Shown one piece after another: positions 6,184 through 8,300 of a DNA stretch of 11,511 bases. Each line of letters begins with the position of its first letter. Position 1 is the stretch's first letter. Below the pieces are notes generated by a model. That model worked only from the letters and a program-made list of their open reading frames with translations, was not told the origin of the DNA and made no database searches. The stretch lies in the UHGV virus genome UHGV-0110285. One strand, given 5' to 3'. Origin of the DNA: a virus. The position numbers were made by a program, and so were the translations under genes.

Positions 6184-6567
6184 ATGCGTGATATTCAGAT
6201 GGTTCTTGAGCGTTGGGGAGCGTGGGCGGCTAATAATCATGAAGATGTGACCTGGTCGTCCATTGCCGCCGGTTTTAAGGGATTAATTACTTCAAAAGTA
6301 AAATCTCGCCCGCAATGTTGTGACGATGACGCGATGATTATTTGCGGGTGCATGGCCCGTCTGAAAAAGAACAACAGCGATTTGCACGATTTATTAGTAG
6401 ATTATTATGTAGTCGGTATGACATTCATGTCACTGGCAGGTAAGCATTGCTGCTCTGATGGTTATATCGGGAAAAGGTTACAGAAGGCTGAGGGTATAAT
6501 TGAAGGGATGTTAATGGCATTAGATATCCGGTTAGAGATGGATATCGTTGTTAATAACTCTAATTAA
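6184..6567 (+). CDS. quuD: Late-gene antiterminator Q (QuuD-like, non-lambda Q type), 127 aa from the ATG at 6184 (the track ORF begins at a TTG at 6169)
   Basis: [24 protein letters not shown].. with Cys-rich stretch [16 protein letters not shown]; GGAG 8 nt upstream of the ATG; sits between rusA/ylcG and the lysis genes. Confidence 0.8.
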
Positions 6568-6600
6568 TACGCCAATTATTTACTAAAAGTTATTAAAAAT

Positions 6601-6619
6601 GGGGCGTTGAAACGCCCCC
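6601..6619 (-). terminator. Intrinsic terminator for minus-strand (porin) transcripts: GGGGCGT-TGAA-ACGCCCC followed by AUUUUU on the minus strand
   Basis: Perfect 7-8 bp GC stem read directly; the T-run is on the minus-strand side. Confidence 0.6.
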
Positions 6620-6658
6620 AAAAATAAAGGGTAATATATAACAGAAGGTTTGTATAGT

Positions 6659-6706
6659 TAGAAGCAAGGTTGTGCTTCTAAAGGAAGTGGCTTGAGGGAG
6701 CCACTT
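6659..6706. other. Two back-to-back stem-loops with identical geometry (8-bp stem, 6-nt loop): TAGAAGCA-AGGTTG-TGCTTCTA at 6659-6680 and AAGTGGCT-TGAGGG-AGCCACTT at 6685-6706
   Basis: Perfect inverted repeats read directly; neither has a flanking T-run. Confidence 0.6.
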
Positions 6707-6710
6707 ATAT

Positions 6711-6745
6711 GTTGGGGAGGCAAAGCCTCCCACAACATATCTTTT
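6711..6745 (+). terminator. Intrinsic terminator for plus-strand transcripts leaving Q: GTTG(G)GGGAGGC-AAA-GCCTCCC(A)CAAC followed by UAUCUUUU
   Basis: 11-bp stem with one bulge plus a downstream U-run on the plus strand. Confidence 0.55.
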
Positions 6746-6755
6746 AGTAATCAAA

Positions 6756-7838
6756 TTAGAACTGGTAAACCATACCTACAGCAACGATATCATCGGTAGC
6801 AACGCCAGATGCTTTCGTGAAATCGCTCTTATCAATCAGGTTGATTTTGTAGTCAACAAAAGTGGACATATTTTTGTTGAAGTAATAGGTTGCACCTACA
6901 TCAACATATTCAACCAGGTCCTGATCACCCCAAACACCCAAGTCTTTTCCTTTAGAATGCAGGTAAGCAACGGATGGACGCAGGCCGAAGTCGAACTGAT
7001 ATTGTGCAACAGCTTCGAAGTTTTGTGCTTTGTTGGCAATATGGTTATTACCAAAAACAGTCATGTTCTGGGTTTCAGAATAGGTGGTGGCCAGATAGAT
7101 GTTGTTCGCATCATATTTCAGACCAGCTGCCCATACTTCAGCATTTTGACCAGAAGCATTCAGACCGTTGTTACCGTAGATAACCTGATTATTAGTGCGA
7201 TCAGATTTAGCATAGGTTGCACCCACGCCGAATCCTTCATACTCATAAGTAGTTGAGAAACCGAAACCATCGCCATTAGCTTCAGTTACTTCATTTCGGT
7301 CATTTTTGCCCTGATACTGAGCTGCAAAGTTCAGGCCATCAACCAGACCAAAGAAGTCGTTGTTACGATAAGTTGCAACACCTGTGGTGCGACCAGTCAT
7401 GAATACATCTGTTTGGGTCCAGGTATCGCCACCGAATTCTGGCAGAACGTCAGTCCACGCACCGATGTCGTATGCTACACCGTAGTTACGGCCGTAATCG
7501 ATGGAGCCGTAGTCACCGAATTTCAGGCCAGCGAAGGCAAGACGGGTTTTATCTTTGGAGGAACCTTGAGATTCAGCGCGGTTGCCTTTGAATTCATATT
7601 CCCACTGACCGAAACCAGTCAGTTGATCGTTGATTTGGGTTTCACCTTTGAAGCCAAGACGGGCATAAGTAGTATCACCATCATCTGCATCATTAGAGGA
7701 GAAGTAGTGTTTAGCATTAACTTTCCCGTACAGATCCAGCTTGTTACTGTCTTTATTATAAATTTCAGCTGCCTGAGCAGACATCGCCATCAGTACTGAT
7801 GCAGCTACAGCAGAAATTGCCACTGTTAATTTTTTCAT
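6756..7838 (-). CDS. nmpC: Phage-borne general porin of the OmpC/OmpF superfamily (Lc/NmpC/OmpD-like), 360 aa, apparently intact
   Basis: Signal peptide [23 protein letters not shown] then AEIYNK..; 16-strand porin-like sequence ending in a C-terminal Phe (..VGMVYQF); convergent with Q, the arrangement known from PA-2 lc and DLP12 nmpC. Confidence 0.9.
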
Positions 7839-8060
7839 CGTGAGCCCTTTTTTTTGAACTATTATTAAAAAATGATGTCACTGCGCGATAAATATTCATC
7901 TAATCAATATGATTATTTCAAGATGTAAGTTTTGGTTTCTCGTTTGATTTGTGAAGTAGATCTCTATTTTTATCTGAACTTTTTTCTATCGAATCCTATT
8001 CATGGCTCTTGGCTGAATAAAAATAAATCTATTAGCCAATTTATATTAACGGTTGTTATT
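7839..8060 (-). promoter_or_regulatory. AT-rich 5' control region of the porin gene (promoter not resolved)
   Basis: About 220 bp of AT-rich non-coding sequence immediately upstream of the porin ATG on the minus strand. Confidence 0.3.
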
Positions 8061-8266
8061 TATAAGTGCTCTATGATTTGAAGGTTCAATTTAAATCGGC
8101 TAAAAATAACACTAGAAATTATTTGTTGGTTATTTGTTGAGATTTGCTTATGTATTTGTAGTGGTGTTTTCAATACTCGGTAGCATTCTCGCAAATATCA
8201 TTTAGTGGTTTACGTACGTAAAAAATTGGTTATGCTGTTAAGAGTGGTTACTTCGTCACACAGCTT

Positions 8267-8300
8267 AAACCCGCCGTCGAGCGGGTTTTTCCATTTTTTG
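8267..8300 (+). terminator. Intrinsic terminator on the plus strand about 115 nt upstream of the holin (tR'-like): AAACCCGC-CGTCGA-GCGGGTTT followed by UUCCAUUUUUU
   Basis: Perfect 8-bp stem plus a U-rich tail on the plus strand. Confidence 0.6.

Follow-up and report, generated by a model that had tools for sequence, protein, structure and literature searches.

The gap between convergent quuD and porin genes of a DLP12/PA-2-type prophage very probably corresponds to the porin 3′ UTR RNA IpeX

The 188-bp gap between convergent quuD and porin genes in an 11,511-nt stretch of viral DNA (UHGV virus genome UHGV-0110285; hereafter the window) is very probably minus-strand 3′ UTR belonging to the porin gene of the prophage, and corresponds to IpeX, an RNA that lowers host OmpC and OmpF. 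IpeX is a described phage sRNA, so the feature itself is already known and the chief value of the present analysis lies in its correct annotation. In the RefSeq records consulted ipeX is not annotated, and for this reason the hairpin cluster beside the Q gene is easily misread as a late-gene leader. The point that goes beyond the known IpeX is a predicted antisense seed in the linker of this RNA, together with the loop of one of its hairpins, which we offer as a testable inference from modeled pairing. For twenty years the way in which IpeX works has been described as unclear, and the comparative data point to a specific seed and loop. If true, this would be a compact case in which a phage exchanges the surface receptors of its host, by means of its own porin plus an antisense RNA directed against that of the host.

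Genetic context of the gap

The window represents a DLP12/PA-2-type lambdoid prophage. Several Escherichia coli chromosomes matched a query across the gap at 100% identity, and the window is 100% identical to a DLP12-like prophage in which the genes are arranged as rusA-ylcG-quuD / porin / essD-rrrD. According to the annotation, the genes follow one another as N, cI-like, cII, O, P, nin genes, rusA, ylcG, quuD, porin, essD, rrrD and Rz. The gap between the Q gene (quuD, plus strand) and the porin gene (minus strand) has the length and the convergent flanks ascribed to it in an earlier note on this sequence. QuuD distantly matches the phage 21 Q structures 6p18 and 6jnx (E = 7.6e-7), and the porin shares 90% amino acid (aa) identity with Lc of PA-2 and 82% with NmpC of P7. 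The porin gene is intact in the window, whereas in K-12 it is split by IS5. In the PA-2 record (J02580.1) two CRP-binding sites (1434-1454 and 1730-1750) are annotated between the porin and lysis genes; the homologous region of the window is 7839-8207. The features distinguished in and around the gap are as follows.

6184-6567, plus strand: quuD, Q-family antiterminator gene (from annotation), convergent with the porin gene and outside the RNA
6756-7838, minus strand: NmpC/Lc-type phage porin gene, 360 aa (open reading frame list and RefSeq annotation of an identical locus)
6593-6758, minus strand: probable IpeX-equivalent RNA, 166 nt; porin 3′ UTR, beginning with the UAA stop codon and ending with the terminator U-run
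6707-6740, minus strand: hairpin A (stem-loop iv), 15-bp stem in which one base is bulged, 3-nt loop
6685-6706, minus strand: hairpin B (stem-loop iii), 8-bp stem, loop CCCUCA at 6698-6693
6658-6681, minus strand: hairpin C (stem-loop ii), 8-9-bp stem, 6-nt loop
6619-6657, minus strand: single-stranded linker, 39 nt, AU-rich and mostly unpaired, overlooked by the earlier note
6595-6618, minus strand: intrinsic terminator of the porin/IpeX transcript (stem-loop i at 6618-6601, UUUUU at 6599-6595; terminator scan)

Correspondence to IpeX

IpeX is described in reviews as a 167-nt RNA of DLP12 and PA-2, which forms the tail of the porin transcript, originates from the porin promoter and lowers OmpC and OmpF. 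Published genetics assigned a trans effect on OmpC/OmpF to ipeX DNA, and the effect on ompC has been described as Hfq-independent. In a supplement of PMC8313858, ipeX of MG1655 is given as 574365-574531 on the reverse strand, with a length of 167 nt.

With the quuD-nmpC gap of K-12 it shares 95-96% identity (96% of alignment columns), and with phage PA-2 (downstream of lc, its porin gene), 434B and numerous other lambdoid phages 95%; in PA-2 and 434B the gap equals that of K-12 (0 mismatches for PA-2). Through the K-12 alignment, the MG1655 ipeX range maps onto 6593-6758 of the window, minus strand. The RNA predicted from the window directly follows the stop codon of an NmpC/Lc-type porin gene, shares the strand of that gene and has an intrinsic terminator at its end, as expected of IpeX. 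The abstract of the IpeX study by Castillo-Keller, Vuong and Misra (2006) reportedly states that there is no complementarity with ompC.

No IpeX, MicF or MicC family match was obtained in Rfam at gathering thresholds for the whole window, and a search over the gap at E values up to 10 returned chance-level sub-threshold matches only (traJ_5, AniS and others); Rfam contains no model for IpeX. RepRanger lists ipeX among REP-containing entries; within the window, the adjacent hairpins (ii) and (iii) are dissimilar to each other.

Structure of the predicted RNA

The four stem-loops noticed in the gap at the outset, (i) to (iv), can all be read in the sequence at or near the positions originally assigned to them. 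Stem-loop (i), at 6601-6618, consists of a 7-bp GC stem (GGGGCGT/ACGCCCC) with a 4-nt loop followed by a minus-strand UUUUU. It was called on the minus strand by the terminator scan and is the terminator of the porin transcript; a clear U-run follows it on the minus strand only. The geometry proposed for (ii) and (iii), an 8-bp stem with a 6-nt loop and no U-run on either strand, holds for both (6659-6680 and 6685-6706), and the stem of (ii) reaches 9 bp if positions 6658 and 6681 are counted. Stem-loop (iv) does have a bulged stem and a plus-strand T-run, but its stem comprises 15 bp rather than 11 (6707-6721 paired with 6725-6740, bulged A6732, loop AAA) and the run is just four T long (6742-6745). 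Considered as a plus-strand terminator, (iv) is a strong hairpin with only four U and it was not called by the terminator scan.

Read on the minus strand from 5′ to 3′, the order is UAA stop codon, hairpin A, hairpin B, hairpin C, 39-nt linker and terminator (i). The minus-strand fold has an energy of −59.1 kcal/mol, compared with −30.1 ± 3.8 kcal/mol in 200 dinucleotide shuffles (z = −7.68), and the plus-strand fold gives z = −7.65 in shuffles of the same kind. The loop of hairpin B has a predicted unpaired probability of 1.0. Three explanations had been entertained for (ii) and (iii), of which the structured 3′ UTR of the porin proved essentially right, with the extension that the whole gap is porin 3′ UTR and very probably IpeX.

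Conservation and covariation among 3′ UTR lineages

Related loci came from an unbiased search of viral contigs with the conserved C-terminal part of the porin, from loci found through QuuD and from annotated phages. They fall into five diverged 3′ UTR lineages, with identities to the window of ~100-90%, ~78% and ~72% and a partly alignable P7 type. The order of three hairpins, linker and terminator is kept in all five. In the diverged lambdoid lineages a convergent QuuD-type gene is also kept, ~180-190 nt away.

Covariation was assessed in an alignment (A2) of 21 sequences from the five lineages. RNAalifold recovered the four hairpins, and 12 of the 31 base pairs were changed on both sides. 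In this alignment 96% of cells are paired, versus 37-56% when the pairing partners are slid; the covariation score is 0.289, versus at most 0.089 for slid partners, and none of 500 shuffles reached 0.289. Conservation and covariation of the stem-loops, the lack of which the earlier note had named as one way to refute its reading, are thus both present (five lineages, 12/31 compensatory pairs).

The changes are distributed over all three hairpins. Hairpin A shows compensatory changes at alignment columns 28/55, 29/54, 35/49 and 36/48, its base (AUAUG...CAUAU) being conserved and its top variable. Both-side changes occur in 4/7 pairs of hairpin C, and the stem of hairpin B covaries in 4/7 pairs around a loop, CCCUCA, that is invariant in all lineages. 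Terminator (i) is kept throughout, with G.U variants on the sense strand. Conservation is highest, however, in the linker and not in any hairpin; the linker core, AAC.UUC.UGUUAU.UAUUACC, hardly varies over the five lineages.

The hairpins are nearly strand-symmetric, and the strand was therefore assigned from the G.U counts, the position of the U-run and published descriptions. On the porin-sense strand ~34 G.U cells were counted versus ~9 A.C cells. Whole-molecule folding energy did not discriminate between sense and antisense (mean difference 0.1 kcal/mol). An early set of within-E. coli variants gave a mixed strand signal, the source of which was six contigs with error-like changes; L107, L113 and four other IMG/VR contigs (t13, t14, t19, t20, t24, t29) were left out. 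In these six contigs clusters of T/A-to-G/C changes lie in G- or C-rich runs and mimic structure-breaking variation; they look like assembly or sequencing errors.

A small protein encoded in the gap, either by a plus-strand ORF starting at ATG 6709 or by the minus-strand ORF 6593-6754, is an extremely improbable explanation of these features. An ORF1 is annotated in PA-2 and a hypothetical protein in 434B, and a 53-aa minus-strand ORF was listed for the window. However, substitutions obey base-pairing rather than codon rules, and a 1-nt T indel among near-identical variants shifts the plus-strand ORF, which has 12 aa in the window and ~72 aa in K-12 and PA-2. It is very unlikely that ORF1 of PA-2 or 434B is a gene. 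The ORF1 equivalent of the window lies at 6709-6747 (plus strand, 12 codons versus ~72 in K-12), and the length change is due to the insertion or deletion of a single T at 6741/6742.

The late promoter lies beyond the porin gene

In many lambdoid phages the late promoter is located just after the Q gene. This placement, and the short plus-strand U-run after (iv), speak for a further explanation contained in the earlier note, namely that the gap encodes a plus-strand, Q-dependent, 6S-like late-leader RNA starting just after Q and ending at (iv). We consider such a leader very improbable. Eight porin-less prophages with QuuD-type genes (from E. coli, Shigella, Trabulsiella, Pantoea, Citrobacter and Xenorhabdus) carry an invariant block that starts ~30 nt past the Q stop codon, and this post-Q block aligns not to the gap but to a segment on the far side of the porin gene:

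8209-8297, plus strand: probable late promoter/leader/terminator (pR′/tR′ equivalent), with TTTACG-N16-TATGCT, a conserved initial transcribed sequence, a stem-loop at 8267-8288 and a T-run

The block consists of TTTACGTACGTAAAAA, a −10-like hexamer and GTTAAGAGTGGT.ACTTCG.CACA, followed by a terminator that was called by the terminator scan; the predicted leader is only ~55 nt long. Among QuuD relatives of at most 87% aa identity that have no adjacent porin gene, no similarity to the gap was found. A scan of the gap revealed no sigma-70-like site on the plus strand, and the G.U pairs favor the minus strand. In addition, the porin gene of phage P7 is followed by hairpins of the same architecture although no Q gene is close to it, and we therefore assign the hairpins to the porin gene and not to Q.

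Given the late-promoter block at 8209-8297, the porin promoter, the porin gene and IpeX (~6568-8207) constitute an inserted cassette: a ~1.6-kb segment placed between Q and its late promoter, and present also in the P1-like phage P7. The porin gene with its promoter region and IpeX acts like a single mobile cassette, the P7 copy of which (L119, 1501-2800) is situated between odaA and ssb. In E. coli N68 (NZ_CM165878.1; positions 2200-2700 of segment L116) a porin gene with an IpeX-like 3′ UTR is found beside ybcM, with no annotated quuD; this locus looks like a decayed DLP12 remnant that has kept the cassette. In relatives that lack the porin or are rearranged, the late-promoter block is succeeded by tRNA genes for Ile and Arg (L008, 3580-4180; L117, 4609-4770), as in Shiga-toxin phages.

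The same comparison bears on the possibility that the hairpins act only as insulators of transcription and decay between convergent genes, with (i) stopping or stabilizing the porin mRNA 3′ end, (iv) stopping plus-strand transcripts from Q and neither having a role in trans. Stem-loop (i) is a clear terminator, stacked 3′ hairpins often protect mRNAs, and the strong 15-bp hairpin (iv) is followed by 4-5 plus-strand U in the lambdoid lineages. In the P7 lineage, however, the architecture persists with no convergent Q and no plus-strand U-run past hairpin A. An invariant loop and linker are unnecessary for insulation, and the published genetics gives a trans effect on OmpC/OmpF. We judge a purely insulating role to be improbable.

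Predicted pairing of the linker and the hairpin B loop with host porin leaders

Two segments of the linker are predicted to be antisense to the ompC leader. The segment AACCUUCUGUUAUAU (6650-6636) is predicted to pair with AUAUAACAGAGGGUU at ompC −21..−7, including the Shine-Dalgarno sequence, and CCUUUAUUU (6630-6622) with AAAUAAAGG at ompC −31..−23, which gives contiguous matches of 15 bp and 9 bp. Pairing of the linker with the Shine-Dalgarno/AUG region of ompF is also predicted. Full-length RNAduplex searches gave meaningless end-to-end duplexes even for ompA, and when the search segment extended into hairpin C the duplexes were inflated and heavily penalized; these searches were replaced by searches with the unpaired linker only, to which opening energies were added.

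The linker duplex energies are −26.4 kcal/mol for ompC, −18.8 for ompF, −14.3 for the phage porin's own leader and −9.6 for ompA, and the ompC value was reached by none of 6658 K-12 background windows. With opening energies added, a rough stand-in for IntaRNA or RNAup, ompC (−16.0) and ompF (−11.9) rank first and second of 50 translation-initiation regions, in a ranking whose background is small (48 genes plus one 50-kb region). The opening-corrected background averages +2.5 ± 4.7 and goes no lower than −6.9, and the MicF-ompF control gave −16.3. With the linker of the window, ompA ranks 42nd of 50; across seven lineage representatives its rank is 27-47. In six of the seven representatives ompC and ompF both rank between 1 and 5, being the top two in four of the seven, although E. 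coli targets may not suit the hosts of these lineages; for the seventh, t35, ompC ranks 3rd and ompF 19th. The pairing registers vary between lineages. The predicted ranks are consistent with a decrease of OmpC and OmpF but not of OmpA.

The loop of hairpin B, CCCUCA, is complementary to UGAGGG in the ompC and ompF leaders. The hexamer TGAGGG is rare (7 occurrences per 100 kb) and is found at ompC −66 and at ompF −15, where it is the Shine-Dalgarno sequence of ompF; it is not found in the ompA or phage porin leaders. In ompC, the UGAGGG at −66 lies inside the loop of a 5′ leader hairpin, and the center of this loop has a predicted unpaired probability of ~1.

The plus strand of the linker at 6622-6650 matches the ompC leader at 24/24 paired positions bar one G/A difference, with a different spacer. 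The sequence AAATAAAGG-GTAAT-ATATAACAGAAGGTT of the window is a near copy of AAATAAAGG-C-ATATAACAGAGGGTT of the K-12 ompC leader. This suggests that the IpeX seed may derive from a piece of a porin leader that was captured, in inverted orientation, downstream of the phage porin gene.

A target prediction for IpeX region 128-142 is contained in the supplement of PMC8313858 (file 4), where the targets ranked 2, 4, 7, 9 and 11 are listed and rank 1 is missing. The top-ranked target missing from the table could be ompC.

A possible antisense mechanism

According to the modeled pairing, IpeX may be a classical antisense regulator. This is a tentative proposal, which we put somewhat short of probable, and it runs against the published view that no base pairing is involved; for that reason it may already have been tested and rejected. 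According to the literature, IpeX forms the end of the porin transcript and lowers the production of host OmpC and OmpF, so that the phage porin very probably replaces the host porins. In the proposed mechanism, the linker (6650-6622, minus strand) would serve as a MicF-like antisense seed on ompC −31..−7 and on the Shine-Dalgarno/AUG region of ompF. The CCCUCA loop of hairpin B could make the first, loop-loop contact with the UGAGGG of the ompC 5′ hairpin or with the ompF Shine-Dalgarno sequence, and if ompC recognition started with such a loop-loop contact, the reported independence from Hfq would be accounted for. The probable role of hairpins A and C is to protect the RNA once it is processed and to insulate the two convergent genes. 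The leader of the phage porin itself would escape because it has neither the linker nor the loop target sites.

Alternatively, IpeX could act with no base pairing at all, as a structured RNA that titrates or recruits a protein or ribonuclease, for example through the CCCUCA loop, the complementarity to porin leaders being incidental or a relic. One review states that IpeX does not base-pair, and others that its regulation is not by complementarity alone. Its effect on ompC has been described as Hfq-independent, and an invariant loop on a covarying stem is also typical of a protein-recognition hairpin. Against this, the contiguous 15-bp and 9-bp matches to ompC are equalled by none of the 6658 background windows, ompC and ompF are the top two of the 50 targets, the linker is conserved above the hairpins, and complementarity to porin leaders is kept in several lineages. 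We regard action through structure alone as rather unlikely. An antisense role of the linker, possibly started by the hairpin B loop, remains our preferred proposal for the way in which IpeX may act.

Comparison with known systems

The closest counterpart of the RNA predicted from the window is IpeX of DLP12 and PA-2. Both extend from the porin stop codon to the terminator, opposite quuD and on the same strand, with lengths of 166 and 167 nt and ~95% identity, and every hairpin as well as the linker is common to the two. The window differs from K-12 ipeX by approximately eight substitutions and one 1-nt deletion, none of which falls in the predicted pairing segments or the hairpin B loop.

The late leaders of lambda (6S), phage 82 and phage 21, i.e. 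their pR′-tR′ units, resemble the gap in being short structured transcript units beside a Q gene. However, the probable pR′-tR′ unit of the window lies past the porin cassette, at 8209-8297, and the gap at 6568-6755 is not homologous to it.

With the porin-directed antisense RNAs MicF and MicC, the predicted RNA shares an unpaired segment with extended, imperfect complementarity to a porin Shine-Dalgarno/AUG region, followed by an intrinsic terminator; according to the modeling, the accessible segment complementary to a porin translation-initiation region that is typical of this class is present. The predicted energy is near that of the MicF-ompF control, and the P7-type linker has UUAUUUAUUACC in common with the 5′ region of MicF. 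In MicF and MicC the seed is at the 5′ end of an RNA with its own gene, whereas the putative seed of IpeX is internal and 3′-proximal and the RNA is the 3′ UTR of an mRNA. Moreover, base pairing is not accepted for IpeX in the literature, unlike for MicF and MicC.

CpxQ, SroC and MicL are enterobacterial sRNAs derived from 3′ UTRs, which are released from, or co-terminal with, the 3′ end of an mRNA. Like these, IpeX shares the terminator of its parent mRNA and acts in trans on other mRNAs. It differs from them in being phage-borne and in targeting the functional rivals of its own parent gene.
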